In this document: positions 3,856-52,038 of the stretch, piece by piece | How positions within the stretch are numbered: position 1 is the first letter of the stretch | How the letters are laid out: each line of letters starts with the position of its first letter | NCBI GenBank assembly: GCA_964016885.1 | Contig: OZ024740.1 | Span: 426,994,001 to 427,058,000, forward strand | Length of the DNA: 64,000 bases | Source of the DNA: Eledone cirrhosa | Lineage: Eukaryota | Direction: 5' to 3' | Translations under genes and position numbers: made by a program | The notes under the pieces: model-generated | Database searches by the model: none | Told to the model about the DNA's origin: nothing | The model's input: only the letters and a program-made list of their open reading frames with translations

Positions 3856-4264
3856 ATTTTTGTCGAGCAAACCTGCCAAAACCACTTCTAAATTTTTTGG
3901 TGGTGTTAGTAGGCGTCTGTCATCTTACCATCCCATTCCTACTGACTAGCCTCTGTGTCACGTGATTGATTCTTTAGAATCGGCCATATGACCAGTGGCA
4001 GTGAGAATGTTCAGTACCTGGAATCCAGTCCTCGATAGCTGTTCCATTTACCGAATTATTATTATTTTTATATGAGTCCCCAGTGTCCGCGCATTGCCTG
4101 GAGACTTGGCTGAGAATGACCTCCCTGATGACGCAATGAAATTCTCAACAGTTCATTACGTAACTGTCTTTATCCCATTGCAGAAACTAATTAGTTGGAG
4201 TGAAAATTTAAGTAAGTAAGTAAATTTTTTTTTAATTTTTTAAAAACATTTTTCTTATTTTACG

Positions 4265-6167: not shown

Positions 6168-6415
6168 GCGCATGGTTTAGTGGTTAGAGCATTGGGCTTG
6201 CAATGGAAAGCTTGTGAGTTCAATTCTCGGACCGGGTGCTGTGTTGTTTCCTTGAGCAAGACTTTATTTCACGTTGCTCCAGTTTACTCAGCTGCAGAAA
6301 TGAGATGATAGCACTGAGGTCCTTATCATTAAATCACCCAAGACACCTCCAACGAGATATGCCTCGGAGGAGGCCAGCTAAACCTGCATAGGTGTGAGCT
6401 GTCACACACACACAA
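6168..6415 (+). mobile_element. tRNA-derived SINE (family B)
   Basis: A box TGGTTTAGTGG, B box GAGTTCAATTC, TCCTTGAGCAAGAC core; near-copy at 50553-50790. Confidence 0.8.
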
Positions 6416-6956: not shown

Positions 6957-7159
6957 ATATAGTGTATATATGTGTAGTGTAAGTGTGTGTATACATAGGA
7001 CAGTTATCGATGGTGAATAGACTGTTTGGAGCAATAACAGTCTTTATATATATAAAGACCCTTATATATATAGACACACACGCGCACACACACACATATA
7101 TATATATGTGTGTATGTAAGTAAGTATGTATGTATGCATATGTATATGCGTAAATATTT

Positions 7160-7348
7160 GTTTCTACTTTTGGCACAAGGCCAGCAAATATCCCAGTGTA
7201 TTACTGGTACTTTATTTTATCGACCCCGTAAGGATGACAGGCAAAGTTAACTTCGGCGGGATTTGAACTCAGACAGTAAAGGGCCGTAACTCTGTGCTGC
7301 AAAGCATGGCGTCAGACGCTCGACCGATAATGCCAATCCACCGCCCTT
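7160..7348 (-). mobile_element. tRNA-derived SINE (family A, octopus OK/OR-like)
   Basis: Reverse complement of GGCGGTGGATTGGCA...GAGTTCAAATCCCGCCGA...GGGGTCGATAAAATAAAGTACCAG...CCTTGTGCCAAAAGTAGAAAC. Confidence 0.85.
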
Positions 7349-7689
7349 ATATGCGTAAATAATGCCATCATTGCTCTAATCAATCTACCCACCTTCAGCA
7401 AATAAGCTAAACTAAACGTCAGCCTGTAACCATGATACCTGTCAAACAAAACGTACTCAGCCTCCAAATTCATCAAATCATACGCGGAGCACTTATTATC
7501 CCAAACTCTGCTTGCACAATCAGACCTTTAATAGCCACCTAATGTGTTTATGTGTGTGTGTGTATGCGTTTGAGAAAGTGTGTGTGTGTGCTTACGTGTG
7601 GTTGTATGGGTTTTTATGTGTGCGTGTGTTATATATTATTTGTGGGTGTGGAATATGGAACGGTAGACAATCGCAGAATAGAATTATTG

Positions 7690-10787: not shown

Positions 10788-11490
10788 TTAATTGCTAGAG
10801 GTGGTGACGGGTTCAAGTCTGACATTGTTATATATTGGGTTTAAAGTTTTGGAAGGAATGTCGGAAGCGGTTTGGCAAGACGCGAACACTTCTGATTTTT
10901 TATTAAGGATGTTATGGTTTGAGAAGATGATAGTATGGGTCTCTAGTAGACAGAGGTTACAAAATTTATTAGGTGGTTTGTACGATGTCGCATTACCTAT
11001 CACTTCCCATTTAAGTGTATATGGTTTACTTTTAGTTTTTAGATAGTGTATGTAGCTAGATAGTGAAGTGGAGTTGGCTAGACTGTGTTTTTTGAAAGAG
11101 TGGAGGTGCGAATTGTATCTAATTTTGAAGCAGTTAGAAGTAGAGCCTATATAGGTTTCAGAAGAGTTGTTAGTTGTGACTGTGCATGAGTATATGATAT
11201 CCTTGATTAAGCATTTTTTATCTAAAGGGCAGGTTCTATTTGATCTACACTTACAATTATTCTGGGTGTTAGTCTGCCGGTTATTATGTTGTGTAGAAGT
11301 CTGAATGGTAGCTATAGGGTTATGGTTATGTGGGTTGTCGTTCCCAGCGTTATTGTTTACACTAGTGCTATTACTATTATTTCTATTGATATTAGGGTTA
11401 GTTGCTATAATGTTATTTTGAAGGTTTATCGTCTGTTGTGATTTAGTTTGTTGGAAGTAAGAATTAATTTTTCTTTTATTGCTACTAGCT
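10788..11490 (-). pseudogene. 5'-truncated Naiad-type PLE: Asn-rich linker plus GIY-YIG endonuclease
   Basis: Open frame read by hand: NCKCRSNRTCPLDKKCLIKDIIYSCTVTT..ETYIGSTSNCFKIRYNSH..STSLS..KWEVI..CNLCLLE..LNKKSE; begins at (TA)n; probable 1-nt frameshift near the C-terminus. Confidence 0.9.
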
Positions 11491-12195
11491 ATATATATAT
11501 ATATATATTAGAAAGTGAGGTTTTTTTAACAAAATGAAAAATAACCGAGGTGTCCTACACGAGTGAAAGTATAAAGAAAAAAAGATGAAATCGAAAATGC
11601 AACTGGAGTCTTATTTTAAAAAAATATATATATTTATTTGGTTCATTTACCGGTTTCTGCTTTTCAAAAGTAGAGTTGAGATGGACGGTCTGTGGTTTTT
11701 CTCACATCTGGTTGGTCTCTGAATGTTACTTGTTTTATATGGAAAAAGTGGCTCGAAATGCCAGGTTTTTCGAGAAGTAATTTGATTGGTTGGTCAATAA
11801 TTATAATAAATTTCGCGGCAGTTCGCGTTACAAAGTTCTTCAAACAAGGGGGGGGGGGGTCACAGGTTGTGTTTTCATGTATGAGTGTTTGAATTTCTTT
11901 TTACTTAAAAAGGGGGCTCACGAACGCTTTCTTTTTAATAAACGTAATTTGATTGGTTATAAATGGAATTATGGATGTCACGTGAACAAGTTTCCATTAA
12001 ATTTGCGCGCCTTTATTTGGAAATCTATTCTGTAGCCTATTTAGAGAATTTTATGACAAGTAAAAGATAATGGTCAAGAGAAATGGGATTGGAGAATTGT
12101 TCTGGTTCAGTGGATATGGTTAGTTCGTTGGGGTGTCAGAATTCAGATTTTCTATTGAATAAAGAAAGTAAAGATATGTATGTTTATTTGTGTGC

Positions 12196-12904: not shown

Positions 12905-14094
12905 TTAAACCATATTAAATGATGGTCTATATTTTTGAATAAACATATTTTCCTTATTTATTCGTATTTGTTCTGTTGTATTGTTAGCGCAAAGGTAAAA
13001 TGGGAAGACTTGGAATTTGGGTGTATTATTACTTGCGCATATGTCTAGATGTGCGCTTAGTGCTATCTGTCTCGCGGTTGGATCTCGTAATTGTTGGCGA
13101 TGAACTGTCATTCTGTTTCTGAGTGTGAGTTTAGTTCGTCCTATATAATCTTCATTGCATCCTTTACATTTAATGGCATAAACTATATTTTTTGATGAGC
13201 AGGTGAAGTAAAATGTTGTCCTGATTTAAATGTATACGTGTTGCCTTCAATGAGGTGAGTGCAGGTTCCATAATTAGAGCGACCACATTTTTTTACACTT
13301 GGTTGTGGGTTTGTGGTAGGTAATTTGGCATTGGTGAGTAATGTTTTCAGTGATTTCGGTTGTCTTTTGCTTTTGATTATTTTGTGTGTTTCAAGGGCTT
13401 TTTTCATTGTTGGGTCTTGTTTTAGTAGTGGGATGTTCTTGTGAATAGTGTTGTAAGCTTCCGCATTTCTTGGGTTGTGTGTTGAGATATATCATAGAAT
13501 ATTGGACGTACCTTGAATTTGTTTCTGTTTTCGTAATTCATCAATGCCTATTGCTTTAGCCCTTTCTATTCCATTATTTATTAGTAATAGTGGGTACTCT
13601 CTTTCGAGTAGAATTTGATTTAATTCTTGAAGTCTTTTATTTCGCGTTTCATAATTGGAGACAATTGTGCACATTCTTCTTGCTAGGTTAAAAGAAATGT
13701 TCGTGTTCGTCTGCTTTGGATGGTTGGAGGTGAATAGCAGGTATTGTTTGGAATCTGTTGGTTTGTAGTGTATGTCAGTTTCAATATTTGTGTTTTTTTT
13801 TAAGATTAAGATGTCCAGAAATTGGAGTTGATATTGGCTGTATTCCATTGTGAATTGGATGTGATTATTGATGCCGTTTATTAAGTTTTTGAAATCCTTC
13901 AGTTGGTCGATTGTGTGGGACCGAAGAATGAGACAATCATCCAAGTAGCGTTTCCAATTCTCTGATAAATATTTGTGGAAGTTCAATCCGTATTTTGATT
14001 TGGACTGTTCATATATCTGGACATCTAAGTATGCCATGGCTAAGTTGGCATAAGTTGGAGCGGCTTTTGTACCCATCGCAGTCCCCGATATTTG
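12905..14094 (-). pseudogene. PLE reverse transcriptase C-half, Zn-linker and GIY-YIG endonuclease (one stop, one frameshift)
   Basis: GTAMGTKAAPTYANL, WKRYLDD, FLDI, KPTDSKQYL, STHNPRN, KRQPKSLK; then FTCSSKNIVYAIKCKGCNEDYIG..R.TVHRQQ..KE..FIQKY. Confidence 0.92.
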
Positions 14095-16095: not shown

Positions 16096-16235
16096 CATGC
16101 ACACATATATATATATATGTATGTATGGATTCACCGAACATTTATTATAATGCTCGGTTTGTTTGTAAACAAACATCCCGTATCAAGCCGTACAGTGTCT
16201 AGCAACCATCGTTGCTCATTTGTTCAACACTGACA

Positions 16236-16290
16236 AAGGAACGCTGTACTCGTTTCAAGCTTATTGGCTATCGTCAGCACCGTATACCTT
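16236..16290 (-). ncRNA. Minimal hammerhead ribozyme (inverted-arm copy, slightly decayed)
   Basis: ACGGTG-CTGACGA-tagccaataagctt-GAAAC-GA-GTA-CAGCGT. Confidence 0.65.
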
Positions 16291-16396
16291 CTTGCCAGAT
16301 GTGTGCCCGGCCGATTAATTCACGCGATATGCAAATTAGGCTGATCAGCCGTTAATATATAAGGATATACTTTCAGACGTTCAATCATCTGGCAGG

Positions 16397-16451
16397 AAGG
16401 TATACGGTGCTGACGATAGCTAATAAGCTTGAAACTAGTACATCGTTCCTT
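16397..16451 (+). ncRNA. Minimal type I hammerhead ribozyme
   Basis: Stem I ACGGTG/CATCGT plus AAGG/CCTT; CTGACGA 16410-16416; stem II AGCT-aata-AGCT; GAAA; palindrome ACTAGT; GUA, predicted cut after 16440. Confidence 0.85.
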
Positions 16452-16694
16452 TGTCAGTGTTGAACAAATGGCGACGATGTTTGCTAAACACTATACGGCT
16501 TAATTCGGGATGTTTGTTTACAAACACACCGGGCATTATAATAAATGTTCGGTGAATCTATACGTACATGTATATATGTGTGCATGTATCTACTGTACGT
16601 CTGTATACATATATGTATGTACGTATACATACTTATATTTAAGTAACAGCCGTACTAAGAGTGAGAAATAAAATTTCGTTTCATTTTTTCCATT

Positions 16695-20254: not shown

Positions 20255-20530
20255 GAGGTGCGTGGCATAGTGGTAAGGGCGTTGGATATACGATCATAAT
20301 GTCCTGGGTTTCGATTCCTGTGCTAAGTTGTGTGTTGTTTTCTTGATCAAATCACTTCTTTTCACGTTGCTCCAGTATAATCAGCTGAAAATGAGTATCA
20401 GAAGCAATAGCTAGGAGTTTAACCCTGCGATGGACTGGCGTCCTGTCCAGGGGTGAGTCTTGTACTCTTAGTCGCCTCACGTCACTGACACCGGGATAAA
20501 CACTGACCTGATGAGTCTCCGGGATTGAAA
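20255..20530 (+). mobile_element. tRNA-derived SINE (family B-related, V-SINE-like body)
   Basis: GCGTGGCATAGTGGTAAG, GGTTTCGATTCC, TTCACGTTGCTCCAG, CCCTGCGATGGACTGGCGTCCTGTCCAGGGG. Confidence 0.75.
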
Positions 20531-21964: not shown

Positions 21965-22139
21965 TATACACACACATATCTATCTATCTATCTATCTATA
22001 TATATCTATTGGGGAAAATCGACTAACTTTTAAATTCCATCTGTGATAACATTTTACACGTTTTTATTGTATGTAAACTTCCCCCTTTGTATTTGTCCCC
22101 TTCTTTTGTGCCCCTGTGGCTAATAAAGAAATATATCTA

Positions 22140-22900
22140 TATATGAAAGACGTAAAATAAGAAAATTATAAAAGTTAACTTACTAAAATTTCACTTTTAG
22201 TAAGTAAGTTAATTTTTATAATTTTCTTATTTTACGTCTTTCATATAATTGTTCTGAATCCCCTTGCATTGAACCACAAAGTTACTAAGACAAAACCTAT
22301 ATATTTGCTAGCATAGGTATGCATCTGTATATATATGTTGGTAGATATACTAATTCTTTATAATTATCTCCAAATTATTTTGTTGAGCAAAAATTTGCCA
22401 AAACTGCTACTACAGTTCATAGTAATGGCTCGGCAACTGTCTTTTTAACACCCCACTTCTTACTGATTAACCTCGATGTCACGTGATTGATTCTTTTGAA
22501 TTTGCCACCGACCAAGTAGGCAGCGATTTTTTCAATGTCTTGGAATTTAGTCCACGTTTGCTTTTTTCCATCCACTGAATTTTATTCTTGTATAAGTTCC
22601 CTGTGTCCACGCATCGCCTGGTAACTTACCTGAGAACAGACTTCCTGATGACGAAACGGCTTCTCCATGCTTTCCATTTGGAAACCATGTTTATTCCCTT
22701 TCAGAAACTAATTAGTGGAGTGAAACTTTTGTAAGTAAGTTAATTTTTATAATTTTTTTATTTTACATCTGTCATATAATTGTTCTGCATCCCCTTGCAT
22801 TGAACCACAATGTTACTAAGTTAAAACCTATATATTTGCTAGCACAGGTATGCATCTGTATATATATATATATATGTTGGTAGATATACTAATTCTTTAT
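22140..22900 (+). mobile_element. Retrozyme-like unit: short inverted 5' arm plus ~531-bp monomer with terminal direct repeat
   Basis: 22196-22360 repeated at 22727-22900; 22140-22195 is inverted relative to it; one HHR. Confidence 0.8.
22641..22720 (+). ncRNA. Hammerhead ribozyme homologous to 4121-4200, lacking the H17 base (probably inactive)
   Basis: CTTC-CTGATGA-cGAAACGG...CCCTTTCa-GAAACTAATTAGT-GGAG; stem II covaries with the 4.1-kb copy. Confidence 0.65.
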
Positions 22901-23069
22901 CTATATATGTATATATATATATATAAGTAAGAATATTTTCGAAACAGCGAGCGAGTTTGAAATTATAAATATAAGCTATCGCCATATTTCGACTAAAGAA
23001 ATTAAAGAAATTATTTAGGCTGATAGTGGGGTTAAGAACCCACGGAGAAATGGAACAAACGATGAGTAT

Positions 23070-23140
23070 TGACGTACATGGGAGTCGAAACCACATCTTT
23101 GGTTATCCAGACCACTGTGCTACCATTACACCAACACATC
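23070..23140 (-). tRNA. tRNA-like sequence / pseudo-tRNA (anticodon loop CTGGATA)
   Basis: Acceptor GATGTGT/GTACGTC pairs with wobbles; D arm GTGT-AATGGTA-GCAC; TGGT/ACCA anticodon stem; GGTTTCGACTCC B box. Confidence 0.55.
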
Positions 23141-23370
23141 ACCCGTCTTCTTCATTCAAATTAGAAGCTATAATCTTAGCAACTTTTTCCATTTCTCCGA
23201 GGGTTCTTAACCCCACTATCAGGCTAAATAATTTCTTTAATTTCTTTAGTCAAAATACGGCGATAGCTTATATTTATAATTTCAAACTCGCTCGCTGTTT
23301 CGAAAATATTTTTACTTGACATTACAGTTGCTAAGATTATAGCTTCTAATTTGAATGGAAGAAGACGGGT

Positions 23371-23441
23371 GATATGTTGGTGTAATGGTAGCACAGTGGT
23401 CTGGATAACCAAAGATGTGGATTCGACTCCCATGTACGTCA
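23371..23441 (+). tRNA. tRNA-like sequence / pseudo-tRNA followed by a T6 Pol III terminator
   Basis: Same cloverleaf as 23070-23140; TTTTTT at 23451-23456. Confidence 0.55.
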
Positions 23442-23559
23442 ATACTCATCTTTTTTCATTTCTCCGAGGGTTCTTAACCCCACTATCAGGCTAAATAATT
23501 TCTTAAATTTCTTTAGTCAAAATATGGCGATAGCTTATATATATATATGTATATATATG

Positions 23560-23640
<81 letters not shown>

Positions 23641-24353
23641 AACACACACACACACATGGATCCTGGCATACATACATAGAAATGTGGTACGCAAATCGAG
23701 AAGACACTTTAACAGATGTTGTTCTTGTGTGTGAGTGAGTGTGTGTTTGTGAGTGTGTGTGTGTAGGAATTCTAATAACGGTATATGTATATAAGTGAAC
23801 ACTGGCGAGAACTGCAGGGTGGGAAAAACTCATCAGTACTCCAACACCATGCCATAATAGAACATAGGGGCACATTAGAGAATATAGAGATGAAAATATG
23901 CAATGCTCTGACAAATCACTGAGGCAACAAACATAAACGAAATCCAACCAAAATTAAACAGAAAACATGAGTGGAATAGCAACATCACAATTAATAATTA
24001 AGGACAAAACAAATCAAACACACACTGATAGAACAAAAAACCAACTAGTGACTAATAAATAGACACATAAATAAATAAAAACACACACAGACAACCCGGA
24101 TGTAACAAATGCGCAAATTAAGCACACAACACACAAAAACAAGATGGCGTAGGACAGAACAAAGGAGAAACACACAAGATAAAAACCTAGTTACTGAGGA
24201 GGTCACAGAATGTGTGACAAAAGAGCTTTGACAATATATAAACAACCTTCCGGTTACTGAAGCAACCAATCAACCGGAAATTTGTAATAAATTGAAGTGA
24301 AAACCAACAGCTGCGCGTATTTTTATTAGCAATATGACACTCACAAATTATAG

Positions 24354-24450
<97 letters not shown>

Positions 24451-24494
24451 CCGAAACTCGTACGGGTATATATATATCACTTTATAATATATAT

Positions 24495-24827
24495 ATATTG
24501 GTAAACGGAAAAGAAAATGCTGACAAATTGTTCACAGTGAAAAATAGTTTAATTAGGAATAAGTGAGAATTAGTAATAGTATTGGTTAGTATTCAGTTTT
24601 GGGTTTAAGTTTTACCGGTTGCGCATTTCTAATGATTTTCAAAAATAATTTTGAGATAGAGCATCCGTGATGTTTGCTCTAATCTGATTAGAGCAAACAT
24701 CACGGACGTTCTATTACTAATTCTCACTTATTCCTAATTAAACTATTTTTCACTGTGAACAATTTGTCAGTATTTTCTTTTCCGTTTACCAATATATCAT
24801 AACTTGTGTGTTACACCTCTATTCCTT

Positions 24828-24830
<3 letters not shown>
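24495..24830 (+). mobile_element. Fold-back element with a nested hairpin, between (TA)n tracts
   Basis: 24495-24579 inverted at 24711-24797; inner hairpin TCCGTGATGTTTGCTCTAATC/GATTAGAGCAAACATCACGGA. Confidence 0.75.
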
Positions 24831-24913
<83 letters not shown>

Positions 24914-25349: not shown

Positions 25350-25355
<6 letters not shown>

Positions 25356-26245
25356 CAACTAGAAATTGATTGACACATATAAATATTAAAAATAAACTCA
25401 TGAAACAATCACAGGGGATAATTTGTAAAGTGGGTAATCACACATAGCTAGGTAGGTAACTAATTAAAGTTTAACTAGAGCTTCAAATATTACCTTATAA
25501 AAATGATTAATCCTCCTTGTATATATTTCATTAAAGAAATATATTTCACCAATAATCCGTAAAGTCACAGTAGTCAAATCTTGGATCTTAATCAAGGGGG
25601 AAGATTTAACTAACTGTGTTTACACATCAAATGCAAATCTGCGAGTGACCCGTCGCACGTGTTGAAATTCTAAACCACTAACAACATGCTAGCGTCCTCC
25701 CATTGGCGTGAATAGGGTGATCGATAGCTATAAATAGCAGCCGAGATTTAGCTCTACAATTAAGGAGCCGTTTATATATCCAAAATTAATTTAATTAATG
25801 TTGTTAGTAGTTTTAGAATTGCAACACGTGCGACGGGTCACTCGCAGATTTGCATTTGATGTGTAAACGCAGATAGTTAAATCTCCCCTCTTGCTGAAGA
25901 TCCAAGATTTGACTACTGTGACTTTACGGATTATTGGTGAAATATATTTCTTTAATGGAATATATACAAGGAGGATTAATAATTTTTTAAAAGGTAATAT
26001 TTGAAGCTCTAGTTAAACTTTAATTAGTTACCTACCTAGCTGTGTGTGCTTACACACTTTACAAATTATCCCCTGTGATTGTTTCATATGTTTATTTGTA
26101 ATATATATATATGTCAATCAATTTCTAGTTGATATAAAATGCTCGTATCTATTCATTGGAATCTTTGAGCTTATTCTACGGTGGATATGGCGCATGTCTC
26201 GGACATGACTCCCTTAATTTTATTTTATTAAATTAATTTCGGATA
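25350..26245 (+). mobile_element. Fold-back element (~335-bp arms) with HHR and 3' tail
   Basis: 25350-25687 is the reverse complement of 25798-26136; tail 26137-26245; flanked by (TA)n. Confidence 0.88.
25880..25977 (+). ncRNA. Full type I hammerhead ribozyme with complete stem III
   Basis: Stem I TCTTG/CAAGG; CTGAAGA 25894-25900; stem II CCAA/TTGG extended; GAAA 25939-25942; stem III TATATTTC/GGAATATA; AUA, predicted cut after 25966. Confidence 0.8.
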
Positions 26246-27860: not shown

Positions 27861-27940
27861 ATTTATTTAATAAAAACTGTCCCCAAAATCTGTTTATACA
27901 AGTTATTAAAATATATGGTAAGTAATTTATGAGAATAATT

Positions 27941-28128
27941 GTTTCTACTTTTGGCACAAGGCCAGCAATTATGCCAGTGTATTACTGGTACTTTATTTTA
28001 TCGACCCCGTAAGGATGAAAGGCAAAGTTAACCTCGGCGGGATTTGAACTCAGATCATAAAGAGCCGTAACTCTTTGCTGCAAAGCATGGCGTCCTACCC
28101 TTTACCGATACTGCCAATCCACCGCCCT
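27941..28128 (-). mobile_element. Family A SINE
   Basis: Full reverse-complement copy of the family A consensus. Confidence 0.88.
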
Positions 28129-28299
28129 TAACTTATGACTAATTTATGATAATAATGCAAATTACATGCAATATTTTAATCCTAGAAAAACCAAAGTGAA
28201 ATTCCTAGAGACAGAAATTTCCTGAAACAGAAAAGAAAGATGTCTTATCGCGTCAATAAACAAAAGACAGCGGAAAACCCAAATTCAAAATAAACCTAG

Positions 28300-29565: not shown

Positions 29566-29608
29566 ATCGCTTATTTTCACATGGTTTTGCACTTTATAAA
29601 TTAACGAC

Positions 29609-29648
<40 letters not shown>

Positions 29649-29714
29649 TGCCACCATTTTATTTGAAAAATATAATATATGGTACATATATATATTACAT
29701 ATATATCTATATAC

Positions 29715-29789
<75 letters not shown>

Positions 29790-29835
29790 CATGTCGTTAA
29801 TTTATAAAGTGCAAAACCATGTGAAAATAAGCGAT
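29566..29835. repeat. Perfect ~50-bp inverted repeat enclosing microsatellites
   Basis: ATCGCTTATTTTCACATGGTTTTGCACTTTATAAATTAACGACATGTATA and its reverse complement at ~29785-29835. Confidence 0.85.
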
Positions 29836-32230: not shown

Positions 32231-32465
32231 TATATATATATATATAATTAAGTTAAAAATGTACATCCACATATGTATACTGAAATACTAGTATGCATAT
32301 GAATACACACACGTGTACATATGTAGATGTACCGAGTTTTCACTGGTCACTTTACTGTGAGTGTCCAGCTATTCTGTATGTAAACACACAGACAAACCGG
32401 TTCTTAGAGTCATACTGGTTTTTGAGGAAACACCTTTCCTCTATTCTCCAGAAAGCCAGACAAGG

Positions 32466-32510
32466 AATATTGGACTAGTTTCGATGTTGTTACATCTCAT
32501 CAGCAATATT
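32466..32510 (-). ncRNA. Canonical minimal type I hammerhead ribozyme (copy 2)
   Basis: AATATTG-CTGATGA-GATGT aaca ACATC-GAAAC-TA-GTC-CAATATT: 7-bp stem I, 5-bp stem II, palindrome ACTAGT, GUC. Confidence 0.92.
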
Positions 32511-32930
32511 TACCTATCTTCCGGCTTCTCTAGAGAATCGTGAAAGCACATATCGTTATATGCTTTTTCTATGAAAATTAGTAGTGGGCAGACCAATTTG
32601 CATAGAGCGTGAGTACGTACCGGTTCAACGGAGACGATAAAAACAAATAACGAAACGAAATTAAATTTCGTTTCGTTTGTAACTCACTTTTGTATGACTG
32701 ACGCTTAAACAATTAAGTTAAAAATGTACATCCACATATGTATACTGAAATACTAGTATGCATATGAATACACACACGTGTACATATGTAGATGTACCGA
32801 GTTTTCACTGGTCACTTTACTGTGAGTGTCCAGCTATTCTGTATGTAAACACACAGACAAACCGGTTCTTAGAGTCATACTGGTTTTTGAGGAAACACCT
32901 TTCCTCTATTCTCCAGAAAGCCAGACAAGG

Positions 32931-32975
32931 AATATTGGACTAGTTTCGATGTTGTTACATCTCATCAGCAATATT
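32931..32975 (-). ncRNA. Canonical minimal type I hammerhead ribozyme (copy 1)
   Basis: Identical to 32466-32510, offset 465 bp. Confidence 0.92.
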
Positions 32976-33207
32976 TACCTATCTTCCGGTTTGTCTGTGT
33001 GTTTACATACAGAATAGCTGGACACTCACAGTAAAGTGACCAGTGAAAACTCGGTACATCTACATATGTACACGTGTGTGTATTCATATGCATACTAGTA
33101 TTTCAGTATACATATGTGGATGTACATTTTTAACTTAATTGTTTAAGCGTCAGTCATACAAAAGTGAGTTACAAACGAAACGAAATTTAATTTCGTTTCG
33201 TTATTTG

Positions 33208-33254
<47 letters not shown>

Positions 33255-33258
<4 letters not shown>

Positions 33259-33998
33259 TAAAATAACAGATTAAAGTTTAAGCAAAGAATCGCTGCTTTG
33301 ACCCTTAACGGGATCTTCTGAAACTAACAAAGTCAATCTGTAAACGCAGAAGTGGATATTTTAAAAAACGTTGCAACCGGAGGAAGACAGGAAGACGATA
33401 CTTTGGTTCGTGGAAACGTTCGCTGGCAAAGAACGGGAAAAAACGAATAAGATACGTCATTAATAGGAGCGGTGAAAAACAATTACGCGCAAAGACAGAA
33501 CCACGTTTATGGTATAAAAGAGGTCGTAGACTAATGTTCTCTTAGGTGGTTCATAGAGACGTTCTCTGGCAATGAACGAAAAAAACGAAGATAATACGTC
33601 ATATGTGGAGCGTGGAGAACAATAGCACGCAAAGACAAAACCACGTAAATGGTATAGCAGAAGTCGTAGACAAAAATCTAACTAGGAGACCGAATGAATC
33701 TCCGCTACAGAGTTAAAAACAAAGTAAATAAATACAATACAGAAGTAATAGAAATAAATAAATACATACACGCAAACAAATACGTACATACACAAGCATA
33801 CGCAAAACACTTACCATAGGTATACAAAACCACGCACATATAAATATGTGTGTGTGTGTATGCGTGCATACAAATAAATAAATAAATAATTATATAAACG
33901 TAGATAAATAAATAAATACGTATATAACAAGCGCACAAACATACCTACATACCTTATCGAGCCCTCTTTGGATTTTAGTCTTGAAATTTATTATTATT
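33255..33998 (-). mobile_element. Inverted pLTR copy of the 35505-37040 PLE family plus a direct tail tip
   Basis: 33255-33950 is the reverse complement of ~36260-36952; 33952-33998 matches 36991-37037 directly. Confidence 0.85.
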
Positions 33999-34539
33999 AA
34001 TCTGCTCAGTATTTTTATACTTGGAGCTTAATAGTTACAGGGTTCCAATTGAGTTTTAACTCTAATTTTCATATATATTTCTGCTCCCTCACAAGTTGAG
34101 CTTATTAAGTTGTGTGTGTTGGACTGTTGTTTCTGTTCAATACACGCTTACCACGTTTGACTAGCGGAGCACGAGGTGACAAATTCATCTTTCTGTGTGA
34201 ACGTTGGCAAATAGTGTGTGTTGCATTTAATCAGATTCTCTCGCTGATGATGCCCAGGATTATCTGTTACAAACACACTCAGGGCGAAACAGATTAGGGA
34301 TAATCTGTCCGAGAGATATAATGGTTATTGAGGCGGTTTGTATAATAATAATAATATATTTTTATTTTATCATTCTGTCTGCTTCTTGGTTAAATATTTC
34401 AAACAAATGTGGTTTTTCAACCCTTGTAATTTTAGACACACGGCTTACTGTGTTTCTTACTATATATTATTAATCGGCTCAGTATTTTTATACTTGGAGC
34501 TTAATAGTTACAGGGTTCCAATTGAGTTTTAACTCTAAT

Positions 34540-34548
<9 letters not shown>
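33992..34548 (+). mobile_element. Retrozyme-like 473-bp monomer with ~80-bp terminal direct repeats and one HHR
   Basis: GCTCAGTATTTTTATACTTGGAGC...CTAATTTTCATATATA at 34004 and 34477; ends in long (TA)n. Confidence 0.85.
34237..34316 (+). ncRNA. Full type I hammerhead ribozyme with three complete stems
   Basis: Stem I TCTCTCG/CGAGAGA; CTGATGA 34244-34250 plus an extra T; stem II GCCC/GGGC; GAAA 34286-34289; stem III CAGATTA/TAATCTG; GUC, predicted cut after 34309. Confidence 0.92.
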
Positions 34549-34631
<83 letters not shown>

Positions 34632-34670
34632 GATATTAACAAATGGAAACTATATTTATAAAACCATATT

Positions 34671-34735
34671 TATTTCATTATACATATTTCAAGGATACCA
34701 AGTTAAATTATGGTATGCCTTCATCAGACAAAATA
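34671..34735 (-). ncRNA. Minimal hammerhead ribozyme
   Basis: TATTTTGT-CTGATGA-aggcATACCA...TGGTATccttGAAA-TATGTA-TA-ATGAAATA. Confidence 0.7.
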
Positions 34736-35051
34736 CAATATATACCAGTTTTTTAAATAAACATTGACGTACCCTTTCAAAATGCGACCGTTACTTTTGG
34801 AAGACATCAGGATAGTGGTTTGTTTATTTTAGTAAGTCGTTGTGTTAAGGATAAGTAAAAAGACTGAGAGAGAGAGAGAAACGTGGAGAAAAGAAAGGGA
34901 GAGATAAATAAAGAAAAAGAAGAAAGAAAAAAAACTCAAGAGAGAGAAATATAGAGATAGAGAGAGGGGAGAGAACGAAAACCTTAAGTCATGTCATATT
35001 AAGTTGAGTTAACAATTGAGATGAAATGAATAACAATTTAAATAGAACTTT

Positions 35052-35092
<41 letters not shown>

Positions 35093-35377
35093 TCCTTTTT
35101 TCTTTCTTTTTATTTCCTCCCATCTATTTACCTCTTTCTTTTCTACATGCATTTCTCTCTCTCTCCGATATTTCTCCAGGTTTTTTTTCTCTCTCTCCTT
35201 CTTTCTCTCTACTTCTCTCTCTCCGTCTTTTCTTTCTTTCTCTCCGTCTTTTTCTAATTGTGCTTAAAACTATAACTAATAAAATAATAAACATCTCACT
35301 ATCCAGACAGCTTCCAAAAATAATGGTTGCATCTAATAGGGTACGTCAAAATTATTTATAAAACTGTTTATATATTG

Positions 35378-35442
35378 TATTTTGTCTGATGAAGGCATAC
35401 CATATTTTAATTTGGTATTCCTGAAATATGTATAATGAAATA
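35378..35442 (+). ncRNA. Minimal hammerhead ribozyme
   Basis: Stem I TATTTTGT/ATGAAATA; CTGATGA 35386-35392; stem II AGGcATACCA/TGGTATtCCT; GAAA 35423-35426; AUA. Confidence 0.78.
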
Positions 35443-35504
35443 AATATGGTTTTATAAATATAGTTTCCATTTATTAATATCGTATATATATATATATATA
35501 TATA

Positions 35505-37040
35505 TATTTATTAAAATAACAGATTAAAGTTTAAACAAAGAATCGCTGCTTTCACCTAGAGACGACTCTATTTGGATTAAAAAATCCAATAGTACCCCAT
35601 TCGATGTGTGTATGGGCGCCAGTGATTCTACGGAGGTTACTGATCTTATCGGCCTTTACCTTCTTTTCTCTATCAAGGACGAATTCCCCAACGCGGGCGG
35701 TGGTTTGTACCGTGACGATGGTCTTTTGACCATGACTAAGTGCGGACCTCGTGCTTGCGACAGGTTCAGAAAAGAACTCACAGCCTTCTTTAAAGGCTTC
35801 AACCTCTATACAGGTATACCTCTCGGTCGTTAATTACCTCGACGTTACCCTCAACTTATTGAATGGGTTGTATTACCCGTATAGAAAGCCGAATGATACG
35901 CTTAATTACATAAGTAAGCATTCCAACCATCCTGCCAGCATAACCAAGAACCTGGTAAGAAACGTTTCGTTGAGGCTTTCCCGTATTTCCACCAACGAGC
36001 GTATTTTGAACGACCATTCCACTTATTACAGGTATATATTATCCGTATGTTTTGTGAAGGTACGTATACTTTCTCGTACGTATATTTGATTGTTATGGCG
36101 TATCATTTTTTTTATATATTCTGGTACATATGGTTCGGCTATGTGTATGCGGGAGTTTTGCGTCTGTATGAGTATGCAGGTTCGTACGTATGTAAGGCGT
36201 GTGTATATGTGTACTTCATGTTTTGGTTGACTTACGTCTCCGAACATTTGGGTATTTACATGTAGGTATGTGTGTGCGCTTGTTATATACGTATTTATTT
36301 ATTTATATGTTTATATAATTATTTATTTATTTGTATACACGCTTACACACACACACACATATTTATATGTGCGTGGTTTTGTTTCCTATGGTAAGTTTTT
36401 GCGTATGCTTGTGTATGTACGTATTTGTTTGCGTGTATGTATTTATTTATTTCTATTACTTCTGTATTGTATTTATTTACTTTGTTCTTAACTCCGTAGC
36501 GGAGATTCTTTCGGTCTCCTAGTTAGAATTTAGTCTACGACTTCTGCTATACCATTTACGTGGTTTTGTCTTTGCGTACTATTGTTCTCCACGCCCCACA
36601 TATGACGTATTATCTTCGTTTTTTTCGTTCATTGCCAGAGAACGTCTCTATGCACCACCTAAGAGAACATTAGTCTACGACCTCTTTTATACCATAAACG
36701 TGGTTCTGTCTTTGCGCGTAATTGTTTTTCACCGTTCCTATTAATGACGTATCATATTCGTTTTTTCCCGTTCTTAGCCAGCGAACGTTTCCACGAACCA
36801 AAGTATCGTCTTCCTGTCTTCCTCCGGTTGCAACGTTTTTTGAAATATCCAGTTCTGCGTTTACAGATTGACTTTGGTAGTTTCAGAAGATCCCGTTAAG
36901 GGTGAAAGCAGAGATTCTTTGCTTAAACTTTAATCTGTTAATTTAATAAATATTTGCTCTACGGTTCTTATATATTTGATATATATTTATCCTTATCGAG
37001 CCCTCTTTGGATTTTAGTCTTCAAATTTATTATTATTACT
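35505..37040 (+). mobile_element. Naiad-type PLE, 5'-truncated with a 50-bp inverted pLTR tip and an internal deletion
   Basis: 35505-35556 is inverted to 36901-36952; RT fragment joins directly to the 3' non-coding region at ~36030; (TA)n on both sides. Confidence 0.85.
35557..36030 (+). pseudogene. Naiad-type RT fragment (one frameshift)
   Basis: W.KK..PFDVCMGASDSTEVTDLIGL..GGLYRDDGL / VNYLDVTLNL..PYRKPND..YISKHSNHPASI..RLSRIS. Confidence 0.9.
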
Positions 37041-37061
37041 ATATATATATATATATATATA

Positions 37062-37830
<769 letters not shown>

Positions 37831-40682: not shown

Positions 40683-41280
40683 AAATTGTTATACTTGGGG
40701 AGGGGAGGGTCATATTTGTGTAATATTGCCAGCATTAATAACAGAACACACTCACTCTTTGGTTGGTTTTCGATTTTCGCTTCTGTGATTTTTATATCGG
40801 TAATCTAATTTATTCGGTCCTCAATGTTGCCATTGACTGACCAACGGTCAAAGATAATACAGATACAATATAGACACAAACACATATATATAGTTTATCA
40901 AAGTTCTTTCCTTGCACATCTGCAACATCGTCAGTGCAAAAGATGGCGTAGAAAATACAATGCAACACGAGGAAACATAATAGCACCACTGACGATGTTG
41001 CAGATGTGCAAGGAAAGAACTTTGATAAACTATATATATGTGTTTGTGTCTATATTGTATCTGTATTTTTGACCGTTGGTCAGTTAATGGTAACATTGAG
41101 GACCGAATACATTAGATTACCGATATAAAAGACACAGAAGCGAAAAGCGAAAACCAACCAAACAGTGAGTGTGTTCTGTTATTAATTCTGGCAATATTAT
41201 TACACAAATATTACCCTCCCCATGTATAACAATATTTGTTTCGACACACACGATTTCATATCAAAGACCTCGCAAAACTA

Positions 41281-41547: not shown

Positions 41548-44433
41548 TATTAGAAAGATCGAGTATCGAAAAATCGGCGCACGAGTTCACGATAAACAAA
41601 ATTCGAAATGAGCGGCAGAGGGCTCAATAATTCAGATGAATCAGAGCTATAACTATCGTTAAAATACCGTCTCATATAGAACAAGTCTACAATCAACCAT
41701 ACGATAAAAAATCGATAAAGGAAGATTCGGGACAAACAGATAAAAAATATCAATAAAACAATACATCAATAATTTAAATGAATGTAAAATCATACCCGGA
41801 CCCACTAGAAAGGTGTTAAATCTAGCTTCATGGGTTTCTGTAAATCCTTAGACTGTACTCTATCAGCTCACATATAAATATAAAAGCCTACTAGAGTAAG
41901 CGGAACGGAGTTTACTTTCTCAACGAGCTTTTTTCCTAGCGGAAAAGGGGCCAACTACCAGTGAAAAACGCACATGGCATTAGACAAGGGAGATAACCCC
42001 TATATCCGCGAAAACAATTCGAGGGAATGTGGAAATACACATATCGAATAAGAGTGCTCAATAGACATGTTAAAATAAAACAAAAGCTATTCATCACTCA
42101 ATAGAATCGACAAAAAATGAGCAATAAAATTAACTGGTGGATAGCTATGTCCAGAGCTAAAAATATTAGAAAGATCGAGTATCGAAAAATCGGCGCACGA
42201 GTTCACGATAAACAAAATTCGAAATGAGCGGCAGAGGGCTCAATAATTCAGATGAATCAGAGCTATAACTATCGTTAAAATACCGTCTCATATAGAACAA
42301 GTCTACAATCAACCATACGATAAAAAATCGATAAAGGAAGATTCGGGACAAACAGATAAAAAATATCAATAAAACAATACATCAATAATTTAAATGAATG
42401 TAAAATCATACCCGGACCCACTAGAAAGGTGTTAAATCTAGCTTCATGGGTTTCTGTAAATCCTTAGACTGTACTCTATCAGCTCACATATAAATATAAA
42501 AGCCTACTAGAGTAAGCGGAACGGAGTTTACTTTCTCAACGAGCTTTTTTCCTAGCGGAAAAGGGGCCAACTACCAGTGAAAAACGCACATGGCATTAGA
42601 CAAGGGAGATAACCCCTATATCCGCGAAAACAATTCGAGGGAATGTGGAAATACACATATCGAATAAGAGTGCTCAATAGACATGTTAAAATAAAACAAA
42701 AGCTATTCATCACTCAATAGAATCGACAAAAAATGAGCAATAAAATTAACTGGTGGATAGCTATGTCCAGAGCTAAAAATATTAGAAAGATCGAGTATCG
42801 AAAAATCGGCGCACGAGTTCACGATAAACAAAATTCGAAATGAGCGGCAGAGGGCTCAATAATTCAGATGAATCAGAGCTATAACTATCGTTAAAATACC
42901 GTCACATATAGAACAAGTCTACAATCAACCATACGATAAAAAATCGATAAAGGAAGATTCGGGACAAACAGATAAAAAATATCAATAAAACAATACATCA
43001 ATAATTTAAATGAATGTAAAATCATACCCGGACCCACTAGAAAGGTGTTAAATCTAGCTTCATGGGTTTCTGTAAATCCTTAGACTGTACTCTATCAGCT
43101 CACATATAAATATAAAAGCCTACTAGAGTAAGCGGAACGGAGTTTACTTTCTCAACGAGCTTTTTTCCTAGCGGAAAAGGGGCCAACTACCAGTGAAAAA
43201 CGCACATGGCATTAGACAAGGGAGATAACCCCTATATCCGCGAAAACAATTCGAGGGAATGTGGAAATACACATATCGAATAAGAGTGCTCAATAGACAT
43301 GTTAAAATAAAACAAAAGCTATTCATCACTCAATAGAATCGACAAAAAATGAGCAATAAAATTAACTGGTGGATAGCTATGTCCAGAGCTAAAAATATTA
43401 GAAAGATCGAGTATCGAAAAATCGGCGCACGAGTTCACGATAAACAAAATTCGAAATGAGCGGCAGAGGGCTCAATAATTCAGATGAATCAGAGCTATAA
43501 CTATCGTTAAAATACCGTCACATATAGAACAAGTCTACAATCAACCATACGATAAAAAATCGATAAAGGAAGATTCGGGACAAACAGATAAAAAATATCA
43601 ATAAAACAATACATCAATAATTTAAATGAATGTAAAATCATACCCGGACCCACTAGAAAGGTGTTAAATCTAGCTTCATGGGTTTCTGTAAATCCTTAGA
43701 CTGTACTCTATCAGCTCACATATAAATATAAAAGCCTACTAGAGTAAGCGGAACGGAGTTTACTTTCTCAACGAGCTTTTTTCCTAGCGGAAAAGGGGCC
43801 AACTACCAGTGAAAAACGCACATGGCATTAGACAAGGGAGATAACCCCTATATCCGCGAAAACAATTCGAGGGAATGTGGAAATACACATATCGAATAAG
43901 AGTGCTCAATAGACATGTTAAAATAAAACAAAAGCTATTCATCACTCAATAGAATCGACAAAAAATGAGCAATAAAATTAACTGGTGGATAGCTATGTCC
44001 AGAGCTAAAAATATTAGAAAGATCGAGTATCGAAAAATCGGCGCACGAGTTCACGATAAACAAAATTCGAAATGAGCGGCAGAGGGCTCAATAATTCAGA
44101 TGAATCAGAGCTATAACTATCGTTAAAATACCGTCACATATAGAACAAGTCTACAATCAACCATACGATAAAAAATCGATAAAGGAAGATTCGGGACAAA
44201 CAGATAAAAAATATCAATAAAACAATACATCAATAATTTAAATGAATGTAAAATCATACCCGGACCCACTAGAAAGGTGTTAAATCTAGCTTCATGGGTT
44301 TCTGTAAATCCTTAGACTGTACTCTATCAGCTCACATATAAATATAAAAGCCTACTAGAGTAAGCGGAACGGAGTTTACTTTCTCAACGAGCTTTTTTCC
44401 TAGCGGAAAAGGGGCCAACTACCAGTGAAAAAC
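41548..44433. repeat. 616-bp tandem array, ~4.7 near-identical copies
   Basis: Unit starts at 41548, 42164, 42780, 43396, 44012; one visible variant (CCGTCTCATA in units 1-2, CCGTCACATA in units 3-5). Confidence 0.97.
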
Positions 44434-44441
44434 TATATGTA

Positions 44442-44646
44442 TATAGGAAAACGTATGATCCCGACGGCAGACCTCAAGCCGTTTCGACGGCTATTTCTGG
44501 ACTAATTTAGTCCAGAAATAGCCGTCGAAACGGCTTGAGCTCTGCCGTCGGGGGTCATACTTTTTTCTATTTCCCACTCTACTGTCCTAAGTATGGAGTA
44601 TTCTGGTGCGTTATGGTCCATCTGGTACCTTACCACAATTCCTTTG

Positions 44647-44938: not shown

Positions 44939-45363
44939 TCATTAGTTAAGCAAAACAACACCACAAATTTCCACTGAACCAGATCAATTATGATATATAG
45001 TCATCTGATCCAGAAATATTATATGGAGTAGCGAAACAATTGTAAACGGACATTATTATTATCAATATTATTATTATTATTATTATTATTCTCTACATTC
45101 CTTACATCAAACTAAAATATGTTGACAATCTTTTAATAATGTCTTCCTTGTGAACTTTGTGGTCTTGTTTTGCTTAACTAATGAATATTTCCAGCTCTGC
45201 GCACCTAACTTCTGCATGAACCCAGCTACCTGGCTGCTTTCTACTGCATATTGCACATTGAGCACATGCTTTTACGCTTTGGCTTCTAACTAATTCACCA
45301 ATCTCTCCTCTCATATCTCCTCTCCTATCTCCATCTCTCGCTTTAAGATTGGTTACTCTTGAA

Positions 45364-45367
<4 letters not shown>
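44937..45367 (+). mobile_element. Element with short inverted arms and a tail, between (TA)n tracts
   Basis: CATTAGTTAAGCAAAACAA.ACCACAAA inverted at ~45157-45184. Confidence 0.55.
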
Positions 45368-45451
<84 letters not shown>

Positions 45452-45562
45452 ATATGTATATATGTATGTACGTTTGTATGTATGAATGTATGTATGTATG
45501 AATGTATGTATGTGGAAAAATTCAACGGCCATCCAGAAATGTGTATATGTGTATATACATGT

Positions 45563-46894
45563 ATGCATAAAACATTGATAGAATTTAATGACCAACTATG
45601 GACCAGAGCAGATAGAGATAGCAATTTTGACATTACTATGGGATCATCCGACTCAGCTCAGGTAACTGACCTTGTGGGCTTATTTTTAATCAATTCGCTA
45701 CATAGGAAAATACCTGGTACTACCGGAGGTTTATATAGGGATGACATGCTTTTACTTATTAATAATAATAACCCTGAACTAAATAGAAAATGTAAACAAA
45801 TTACAAAATTTTTTAATTACTTTAACCTTAAAATAGAAATTGAGAACAACCATAGAATAGTCAATTTCCTAGATATAACATTAAATCTCAACACACGTCT
45901 CCACTATCCTTTTCACAAGTTGAATGAAAACTTAAACTATGTCAACTTTAACTCTAACCACCCCAGATCTGTCAAAAACACTATAGTAAACTCAGTTCAA
46001 AAACGTATCTCTAGGATCTCGTCGAATAGAAAGATTTTCGACGAAAAGGCCCAATACTATAATGAAGCATTAGCTAGGGCAGGATATGCTGATAAGATTG
46101 TGTACATAGATAATGATAGACAAACTAAACAAAGTAACAACTTTTTTAATTACGGCTACAACATTAACAACTATAATAGAAAGCATCACAATAATTCCAA
46201 AGGCCAAAAAAGAAATAGAACTAGGAACATAATTTGGTTTGCCCCCCCTTTCTCACTAAACATTAAAACCCACATCGCTAAATTATTTTTCAAAGCTCTT
46301 GATAATCGCTTCCCTAGAACACATAGGTATCACTCAATTTTCAATAGGCATACAATTAAATTAACCTACTCATCCACCAAAAATTTAGCACAAAATATTA
46401 ATAGGATAAATAATAGGAACTTAAAACCTAGTGATAATAGCATAAATAATATACAATTTAACAAATGTAACTGTAGAGATAGATCTAAATGTCCGTTAAA
46501 TAACAACTGCTTAGTTAAAAATATAGTATACAATTGTAATGTTAATACTGACTCTAATTCTTTTAATTACGTCGGTTCCACATCGACGGAATTTAAACTT
46601 CGCTATAATAACCACAAGAATTCTTTCACAGATCCAAGTAAAAAATCTTCAACGGCACTATCAGGCGTACTCTGGCAACTTAAGGTAGATAACGTTAGAT
46701 ATTCGACGGTTTGGAATATAGTTTCAAGAGGGATTCCTTTTAATTCATCCTCTGAGACATGTGACCTCTGCGCAGAGGAGATATTCTTTATACTAAAATC
46801 TAAAAATTCCCTTAACCTACGGACAAATTTATTCAGTTGTTGCAAACATAGATTAAACTCAACGTTTAAATATAAATTTAAATTTAAAATGTAG
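45563..46894 (+). CDS. Naiad-type Penelope-like RT (C-half) plus GIY-YIG endonuclease, 5'-truncated, 443 aa uninterrupted
   Basis: [91 protein letters not shown]. Confidence 0.95.
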
Positions 46895-48335: not shown

Positions 48336-48401
48336 TATTTTGTCTGAGGAAGGCATAGCATATTGTTAATATGATATCCCCGAAATATATATAATGAAAT
48401 A
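48336..48401 (+). ncRNA. Minimal hammerhead ribozyme in the pLTR
   Basis: TATTTTGT-CTGAGGA-...CATATT gtt AATATG...-GAAA-TATATA-TA-ATGAAATA. Confidence 0.7.
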
Positions 48402-48531
48402 AATATGGTTTTATAAATATAGTTTCCATTTATTTAATATTGTAAATATACTCCAAATATTTGTCGAGTGCTTTTATATCAGTTATAAATATTTACTAGT
48501 TGTAACCCAACAATTTTAAATATAACTTTCC

Positions 48532-50161: not shown

Positions 50162-50349
50162 TGGTCGGTGGATTCGCAGTATCGGTAGAGGGTCTGAAAC
50201 CATGCTTTGACGCATAGAGTTACGGCCCTTGCCATTCTGAGTTCAAATCCCGCCGAGGTTAACTTTGCCTTTCATCCTTACGGGGTCGATAAAATAAAGT
50301 ACCAGTAATGCACTGGGTAATTGCTGGCCTTGTGCCAAAATTAGAAACA
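50162..50349 (+). mobile_element. Family A SINE
   Basis: Matches the family A consensus. Confidence 0.88.
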
Positions 50350-50552
50350 AACAATATTATTCTCCCTGATATCCAACATAAACCTAAATTGTACACGCTT
50401 TGTAATTGGTAATATCTAATCATCGTTGCTATCTAAACATTTTGGTAGCTGCTCAATACATACAATGTGAATTATATTCAAATCTGGAATCCTCGATAAT
50501 CGTTTGTAACACATAGTATTTATTATATTAGGCTCACTTAATTATATGGTGA

Positions 50553-51873: not shown

Positions 51874-52038
51874 TAATTATTATAACAACGAGATTTAGGG
51901 ATGATATTAGCTTCAGCGGGATTTGAAATTAGTTGCTAAAATACTATTATATTTTTACTCGGATCCTCTACTGTGTTGCTCGTTACTAAGGGAAATATTT
52001 ATATCTTACCAGAAAAATTACTAGATATTTATACCACT

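Follow-up and report, generated by a model that had tools for sequence, protein, structure and literature searches.

The 64,000-nt stretch of Eledone cirrhosa DNA analysed here (contig OZ024740.1, positions 426,994,001 to 427,058,000 of the forward strand; hereafter the window, with position 1 as its first letter) is animal DNA rich in microsatellites. Positions 22925-23540 hold a single insertion in a (TA)n tract, built from a 267-bp circularly permuted unit that carries a tRNA-like cloverleaf. Read on the tRNA strand, the unit consists of a leader of 45 nt, the cloverleaf of 71 nt, a trailer and body, a tail of ~44 nt and, closing the lap, 8 nt between tail and leader. Three pieces make up the insertion (Table 1), namely the 260-nt inverted arm, the 134-nt central copy and the 215-nt terminal copy, with both 3′ ends facing outward, into (TA)n, where no target-site duplication is readable. 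Between these pieces, 2-4 of 84 body positions differ, as do 2 of 71 cloverleaf and 1 of 44 tail positions. An earlier note, made from the sequence alone, had described a 266-bp unit, a period that has to be corrected to 267. Its layout of an inverted arm (22925-23184) and a partial tandem (23184-23540) in (TA)n, built like the hammerhead units of the window, was borne out. So were the flanks reported there: the ~45 bp of conserved upstream flank measure 45 nt and differ between left and right copy by 0 mismatches and 1 gap (23326-23370), and the ~150 bp downstream correspond to 143 nt to the tail end.

Table 1. Coordinates of the tRNA-unit insertion, its parts and its flanks in the window.
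Feature	Position	Strand	Remarks
Left (TA)n flank	22898-22924	.	
Inverted arm, 260 nt	22925-23184	-	One lap minus 8 nt (leader, cloverleaf, body, tail); 3′ end into (TA)n
Tail of inverted arm, 44 nt	22925-22968	-	1 mismatch to 23274-23317
tRNA-like cloverleaf, left copy	23070-23140	-	Rfam 42.7 bits; T at position 53
Left-copy closing helix	around 23070-23140	-	Disrupted by 1 deletion and 2 insertions
Central 5′-truncated copy, 134 nt	23184-23317	+	From T5 tract to tail; head-to-head with inverted arm at 23184
Optional tail, ~40-44 nt	23274-23317	+	Between both 3′ end sites; terminal copy without tail
Tail-to-leader junction, 8 nt	23318-23325	+	Closes 267-bp lap; spanned by a diverged X1 contig
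Leader (45-nt upstream flank)	23326-23370	+	Travels with tRNA module; homologous variants are the loose ends before 23377 and 23384
5′ strand of 18-bp closing helix, purine-rich	23353-23370	+	
tRNA-like cloverleaf, right copy	23371-23441	+	Rfam 38.2 bits; 4-nt variable region
A box, right copy	23378-23388	+	
Anticodon loop, right copy	23401-23407	+	GGA, U37
B box, right copy	23420-23430	+	Position 53 is A here, G in family
3′ strand of closing helix	23444-23461	+	Includes T tract (T6 at 23451-23456; T5 in family majority)
Variable body of terminal copy	23462-23540	+	No tail; merges into (TA)n via short TA overlap
Right (TA)n flank	23541-23640	.	No target-site duplication readable

In its anatomy the insertion matches Penelope-like elements (PLEs). 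PLE insertions combine a partial tandem, an inverted 5′-truncated copy, a 30-40-bp tail at one end and (TA)n targets (PMC8557442), and the tail is the stretch between two internal reverse transcriptase (RT) start sites, both target strands being nicked and extended (PMC11167929). The tRNA unit likewise forms a partial tandem with a head-to-head inverted 5′-truncated copy, has an optional tail of 40-44 nt that is confined to the inverted arm and the inner junction, and sits in a (TA)n microsatellite without a readable duplication; its ends at 23317-23319 and the boundary at 23278 recur in the family described below. Whatever its tRNA module does, the element was probably mobilised by a PLE. The CxCx5C linker of the Hydra clade, which targets (TA)n (PMC8557442), is present in two PLE open reading frames (ORFs) of the window, 45347-46894 (+) and 10788-11507 (-). 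The window thus offers a (TA)n-targeting machine, a putative partner. The long PLE ORF has 84 homologues, and four of the five named ones are from octopods, at 36-50% identity; Pfam returned no family for it and sub-threshold RVT_1 and GIY-YIG matches for two others. A further Penelope-like ORF piece lies at 13492-14094 (-).

Tandem units of ~170-400 nt, such as those of retrozymes that lack long terminal repeats (non-LTR retrozymes), are found here as well (a period of 267, and of ~240 in public run X5). The type I hammerhead of each retrozyme unit is not: a hammerhead core-and-stems scan found no core on either strand of the tRNA unit, whereas the same scan, as a control, picked up four hammerheads elsewhere in the window, all of them in two units, those at 32246 and 34602. 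The lack of a sense-strand hammerhead pointed out earlier thus holds for both strands. At E values up to 1, Rfam reported HH9 only at 32450 and 32915 in the window, and at E values up to 5 no ribozyme family within 22000-24500; the core-and-stems scan missed looser cores elsewhere in the window, and a very divergent ribozyme could escape it. Two candidates were rejected, namely a degenerate antisense hammerhead near 23200-23225, which failed the core and stem test, and a MIR7533 match (85.6 bits vs 230), which was the inverted repeat itself. The hammerhead unit at 32246-33214 mirrors the layout of the tRNA unit: there, too, the inverted arm and the inner junction have a tail and the terminal copy has none. 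The tRNA module points outward, and so does the hammerhead-type core of the units at 32246, 34602, 16040 and 40685.

To follow the family, four of 11 public sequencing runs (X1, X9, X4 and X5) were mapped on 23184-23536. It comprised 3287 contigs in X1, 2980 reads in X9, 12 contigs in X4 and five contigs in X5. X9 consists of restriction site-associated DNA (RAD) reads, which are biased and contain duplicates; X4 and X5 come from organisms B and C, possibly relatives or traces of organism A, and were not counted as cross-species conservation. Summed contig depth was not converted to copy number, and counts given below for differences, joints and loose ends are partial, covering the 40 of 85, 15 of 30 and 22 of 385, respectively, that were listed. 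Exact-pattern scans returned no copies in metagenome contigs, viral contigs and prokaryote genomes. The family is abundant and mobile, and identity ranges from >99% down to <90%, with G at 23374 and C at 23311 among the majority letters. The cloverleaf is conserved, holding three family polymorphisms among the 40 listed differences; 10 listed differences fall in 44 nt of the body, compared with these three in 71 nt. (TA)n follows directly after 23317 in 116 X9 reads and after 23319 in X4, and 231 of 392 X9 molecules end at 23278, the inner tail edge, with mixed flanks (agreement 0.37). Of the 15 listed joints, 10 change strand, and no two of these do so at the same pair of places.

The circular permutation recurs in the family. 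A diverged X1 contig (23295-23460, with 19 other letters) reads across the tail-to-leader junction, and a 239-nt X5 contig runs from the body through 89 other letters into leader and tRNA, the same permutation with a lap of ~240 nt. These data bear on a possibility that we judge very improbable: a long autonomous PLE such as Naiad would have the unit as its pseudo-LTR and be represented here by truncated pieces. Naiads target (TA)n without canonical hammerheads and are present in Octopus (PMC8557442), and a segment at 48312-48450, downstream of the PLE ORF 45347-46894, resembles the hammerhead unit at 35352-35490, so that short units here can be PLE ends. In the tRNA unit, however, the tail is followed by the leader again, with no ORF between them (X1 depth 14943 at the junction, 18070 at the leader start), and the X5 contig closes the lap in ~240 nt.

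Family depth declines toward the 5′ side, leader depth being 4-8-fold below cloverleaf depth. Together with the short length, the abundance and the A and B boxes (present in the family majority, judged by sequence alone), this would suit an ordinary tRNA-headed short interspersed element (SINE) that was locally duplicated and inverted, or twin-primed. We nevertheless regard this origin as quite improbable. The lost depth consists largely of reads with a leader variant, which appear as loose ends before 23377 (197 reads, agreement 0.96, the same in X4 and X5) and before 23384 (197 reads, agreement 0.83); ~75% of X9 D-arm depth runs on into leader-type sequence. As the family depth mostly extends beyond the tRNA on its upstream side, the tRNA does not form a SINE head, and the internal position claimed for it in the earlier note stands. 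Both window copies have the 45-nt leader in front of the tRNA, a minority of copies starting at the head being possible. Furthermore, the tail-to-leader junction recurs in diverged copies, while the real SINE pair of the window shares sequence from 50554, 6 nt inside the cloverleaf at 50548. Across the 3′ end of the cloverleaf, X9 depth rises from 1153 to 1814, and therefore many copies are without the module.

An ordinary tRNA-headed SINE family, in contrast to the tRNA unit, occupies 6174-6413 and 50554-50788 (also 20331-20395); its segment at 50548-50614 gives a weak Rfam tRNA match (E 0.09).

The only two Rfam tRNA matches at gathering level (score 29) in the 64-kb window are the cloverleafs of the insertion (Table 1), in agreement with the 71-nt cloverleaf of the earlier note, and ARAGORN labels both Ser(GGA). 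Since the free energy of the isolated cloverleafs is no better than that of shuffles (z +1.64 and +0.25), they rest on the covariance model, not on free energy. The A box is intact in both copies, as described earlier; the B box is not, as G53 is missing from both (A in the right copy, T in the left), and this part of the description holds for the family majority instead, in which G at 23421 accounts for 181391 of 182678 X1 depth and 971 of 1135 X9 reads. The loss of G53 to different bases at 23421 (+) and 23090 (-) may be coincidence or local promoter silencing. The T6 tract, likewise reported earlier, does lie 9 nt past the cloverleaf in the right copy, and there alone: the central copy has T5, the left-copy tract is split by two insertions, and C at 23456, hence T5, makes up 99% of X1 family depth. 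As a conserved terminator T6 does not stand, the family tract being a T5 that is paired in a helix (see below). An extra 3 T at 23450 occur in 96 of 1883 X9 reads.

The non-standard loop CTGGATA, with its GGA anticodon, pyrimidine 37 and short variable arm, is directly seen (U37, 4-nt variable region), and U33 is polymorphic in the family (C in 17% of X1 depth). A short variable region and A73 are unlike tRNA-Ser identity, a purine is expected at position 37, and eukaryotes read these serine codons with an IGA anticodon. The combination of long variable arm, G73, purine 37, U33 and G53 that marks a functional tRNA-Ser is not found. The cloverleaf is not a working tRNA-Ser; with its 4-nt variable region, A73, U37, C33 fraction and lost G53, the fold is no longer usable for translation. 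Hence, in spite of the ARAGORN and Rfam calls, a functional tRNA-Ser(GGA) gene family deserves next to no credence, the copies being part of a decaying repeat with a pyrimidine at 37, a polymorphic U33 and no G53 in the window. A phage search gave no informative match to a parent isotype (best E 0.04; Met, Trp, Pro and His mixed).

Newly described here is an 18-bp helix closing the cloverleaf, formed by the pairing of leader 23353-23370 with trailer 23444-23461; the T tract is therefore part of a stem. In the right copy this duplex has a free energy of -16.6 kcal/mol, matched by 10 of 1000 shuffles, and when the natural lap is folded as a circle, 17 of the 18 pairs form at probabilities of 0.6-1.0. 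Folding of the whole monomer is no better than that of shuffles (linear z 0.19; circular 43 of 200). In family majority letters the closing helix has 14 Watson-Crick and four G-U pairs and no mismatch, and all five stems together (39 pairs) have 29 Watson-Crick, nine G-U, one G-A and no A-C pairs. Under a null in which neutral transitions yield G-U and A-C equally, the probability of this bias is 2^-9 = 0.002 over all stems and 0.06 for the closing helix alone (4:0). Since nine G-U pairs are opposed by no A-C pair, the fold looks as if it has been kept by selection on the tRNA strand, at the RNA level. Four listed differences inside the 36 positions of the helix keep or restore pairing, and just past it three of four positions (23462, 23464 and 23465) vary freely.

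The same observations bear on two further origins. For a DNA-level element (a miniature inverted-repeat transposable element or rolling-circle derivative), in which leader and trailer would be a subterminal inverted repeat, we see a very slim chance: it would account for the short inverted repeat, the AT-rich targets and the tandem copies, but the pairing is strand-specific via G-U (module folding at -28.8 kcal/mol sense vs -16.7 antisense), and 5′-ward depth loss and variable inversions fit reverse transcription. Highly unlikely, too, is a tandem arrangement of a Helenus-type terminal-repeat retrotransposon in miniature (TRIM), whose polypurine tract (PPT) would be the purine run that precedes the tRNA. 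A tRNA-like sequence does lie inside a repeated terminal unit, a purine-rich run followed by TG is present at 23354-23371, and animal Helenus exist, bivalves included, some in tandem arrays (PMC10886601). However, no primer-binding site (PBS) or PPT between two LTRs was found, all six TGG of the lap lying in leader or cloverleaf; the ends are fused to (TA)n and are not TG...CA, a 4-bp duplication is absent, and inverted arms occur at many places. The purine run, moreover, is explained by its pairing with the trailer.

The reading that we favour, tentatively and with rather less than even confidence, is that of a non-autonomous, retrozyme-like unit without a ribozyme, copied by a PLE, whose tRNA module would serve as an internal RNA polymerase III (Pol III) promoter. 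The RT and GIY-YIG endonuclease of a (TA)n-targeting PLE would copy the 267-nt permuted unit in trans. The endonuclease would nick both strands inside (TA)n, reverse transcription would begin inside the RNA at ~23317 (the tail end) or ~23273-23278 on a multimeric or circular template, and the two cDNAs would be joined head to head. The promoter function is the least sure step; it is supported by the intactness of both boxes in the family majority and by the T runs of the left arm, which has 11 of T3 and none of T4 or longer, a pattern equalled in 59 and 60 of 2000 shuffles and, in the same test on seven control units, in 302-1946 of 2000. Most transcripts would end at T5, and those that read through would become the template. 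Because the unit is permuted and tandem, a new insertion would inherit the 45-nt upstream flank, which a SINE loses, by what appears to be the same logic as in Cassandra and Helenus LTRs. [quoted passage not shown]

Several points weigh against this reading. An nhmmer search found no sequence common to the tRNA unit and PLE 3′ ends within the 64-kb window. Only one insertion is fully assembled, the evidence on the family coming from short contigs and RAD reads. A T5 10 nt past the cloverleaf would be expected to end most Pol III transcription ahead of the RT start sites, so that read-through has to be assumed. Hammerhead cleavage is dispensable in vitro (PMC11167929), and the module at the place of the hammerhead may accordingly do nothing. 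The test of T runs in the left arm (p ~0.03) was post hoc and concerns one copy whose own T5 is broken. As regards the fold, a C-A mismatch at 23366 is present in both window copies and in ~19% of X1 depth, the left-copy helix does not stand out from shuffles (643 of 1000), and ViennaRNA gives the cloverleaf pairs of the window copy probabilities of ≤0.08. Two-sided (compensatory) pair changes were not seen in the family data, the majority letters are taken per position and are not haplotypes, and some of the G-U pairs in the cloverleaf may go back to the parent tRNA.

Alternatively, the module could chiefly be a processing signal: host RNase P would cleave each cloverleaf of a read-through multimer at +1, and the helix would clamp the ends of the resulting 267-nt monomer for ligation into a circle that serves as RT template. 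We consider this rather unlikely, if by no means negligible. Helix I of type I hammerhead retrozymes has this topology, the closing helix folds across the circular lap and outperforms most shuffles in the right copy, and its listed differences respect pairing where the next positions do not. Leader-trailer pairing promotes RNase P cleavage of mascRNA (PMC8457004), and the left arm stops 8 nt short of a lap, with three of the 10 listed strand switches at 23331-23337, as a circular template might give. On the other hand, cleavage requires a bulge 5′ of the cut (PMC8457004), while here -1 is paired and a 3-nt bulge lies on the 3′ side. A second subfamily has an apparently remodelled, shorter acceptor stem (inferred from X4 loose ends), ends do not pile up at 23371 among those listed, and the left-copy helix and the insertion of 3 T at 23450 count against this reading too. 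RNase P products have 5′-phosphate and 3′-OH ends. This end chemistry is unsuited to RtcB. That ligase circularised retrozymes in vitro (PMC7229834). Processing by RNase Z, which the earlier note had also suggested, is not supported, as a paired trailer inhibits that enzyme (as cited in PMC8457004) and no copy among those listed ends at +73/74. Four of the 10 listed strand switches cluster at 23431-23439; this cluster may reflect RT stalling or short palindromes and is not evidence for RNase Z. Depth steps at 23432 in the contig runs were set aside as assembly-graph boundaries.

It is also conceivable, although unlikely, that the module rides along as passive cargo: a host pre-tRNA gene or SINE head, together with its own natural purine leader and T terminator, would have been captured once and amplified via the PLE-recognised body and tail. 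PLE terminal repeats can mobilise unrelated captured sequence in trans (PMC3846280), ordinary pre-tRNAs can have extended acceptor stems (as cited in PMC8457004), and many copies lack the module, as the X9 depth step indicates. Yet the anticodon loop has drifted (U37, C33) while the stems have stayed paired and both boxes intact, and the body is more variable than the cloverleaf. The Pol III promoter and RNase P readings are compatible, and both can hold. Their union would be a ribozyme-free retrozyme, in which a tRNA mimic replaces the hammerhead core in the same closing helix, recruits Pol III and RNase P and yields circular RNA that a PLE RT copies into (TA)n; we hold this combination to be unlikely.

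The tRNA unit is inserted in the terminal (TA)n of 22193-22900, a 531-bp-spaced direct repeat with a hammerhead-like word at 22645 that is related to 3858-4241. The hammerhead unit at 32246-33214 has two Rfam HH9 matches of 38.9 bits each, a 465-bp period, an inverted arm, copies 99% identical and a tail of 75 nt, longer than the usual 30-40 bp. Inverted units in (TA)n with looser hammerhead-like cores, for which neither Rfam nor the stem test made a call, lie at 16128-16558, 37153-37386 and 40685-41233, and inverted or fold-back units, most of them by (TA)n, with no core by pattern, lie at 24361-24912, 25351-26136, 29566-29835, 33251-36953 and 44443-44570. The window further contains a tandem array at 41548-44433 (616-bp period, copies 99.8-99.96% identical), a 41-bp satellite at 1-2514 (61.5 copies, 94% matches) and a ~190-bp dispersed repeat with at least 10 copies in both orientations, including 7153-7349, 27934-28130, 50163-50351, 51492-51881 and 54988-55186.

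Small-RNA modules transcribed by Pol III are known in elements that depend on LINEs (SINEs) and in LTR-dependent ones (Cassandra, Helenus and Ajax); if the favoured reading is true, a counterpart moved by PLEs fills the missing third case. The purpose of the hammerhead in PLE repeats is an open question (PMC8557442, PMC11167929), and the same anatomy with a tRNA mimic makes it possible to ask what that slot requires: cleavage, promoter activity or just a fold. A protein-free element with a tRNA look-alike in the place of the hammerhead suggests another route to the production or trimming of RNA. In practice, such units inflate tRNA gene counts and are prone to mislabelling as SINEs or tRNA-Ser genes. 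A literature search covering neither subscription papers and supplements nor Repbase and Dfam returned no PLE-type element with an internal tRNA. As 893 unclassified recently active SINE families are recorded in Octopus vulgaris (PMC13282606) and ~17,000 tRNA-derived loci in giant squid (PMC6962438), the family may already be present, unlabelled, in a repeat library.

Among known systems, non-LTR retrozymes and non-autonomous PLEs (PMC7229834; bioRxiv 10.64898/2026.07.22.740005; MRC1 and other Chlamys in PMC8557442) share with the tRNA unit a short non-coding unit of 170-400 nt, head-to-tail copies, the PLE insertion anatomy and a helix-closed core on the outward strand. Their core is a hammerhead, whereas the tRNA unit has a cloverleaf with A and B boxes; retrozymes are reported to be without promoters (PMC7761336). 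tRNA-derived SINEs (PMC3531059) are likewise non-autonomous, shorter than 700 bp and dispersed in many copies, with tRNA-derived A and B boxes. In the tRNA unit, by contrast, the tRNA is not the 5′ head, a 45-nt flank is carried along, permuted tandem and inverted arms occur, and no LINE-type tail is seen. Helenus, Ajax and Cassandra (TRIMp3; PMC10886601, PMC7215508) resemble it in being non-autonomous, with a small-RNA-derived Pol III promoter (a putative one in the tRNA unit) inside the repeated unit, isotype-anticodon disagreement and tandem arrays. These, however, belong to the LTR elements: they have PBS, PPT and 4-5-bp duplications, Copia or Gypsy moves them, and conservation is reported around their boxes. 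The tRNA unit differs in its PLE ends, tail, inversions, (TA)n targets and kept stems with an 18-bp closing helix. Finally, in MALAT1 mascRNA and MEN-beta menRNA (PMC8457004), too, a tRNA mimic lies within a longer transcript, and its purine-rich leader pairs with the trailer. These are products of single-copy host genes, with a 7-bp extension, a bulged A at -1 and RNase P cleavage that has been shown, whereas the tRNA unit is a mobile repeat with 18 bp, a 3-nt bulge on the 3′ side and cleavage that is a prediction.
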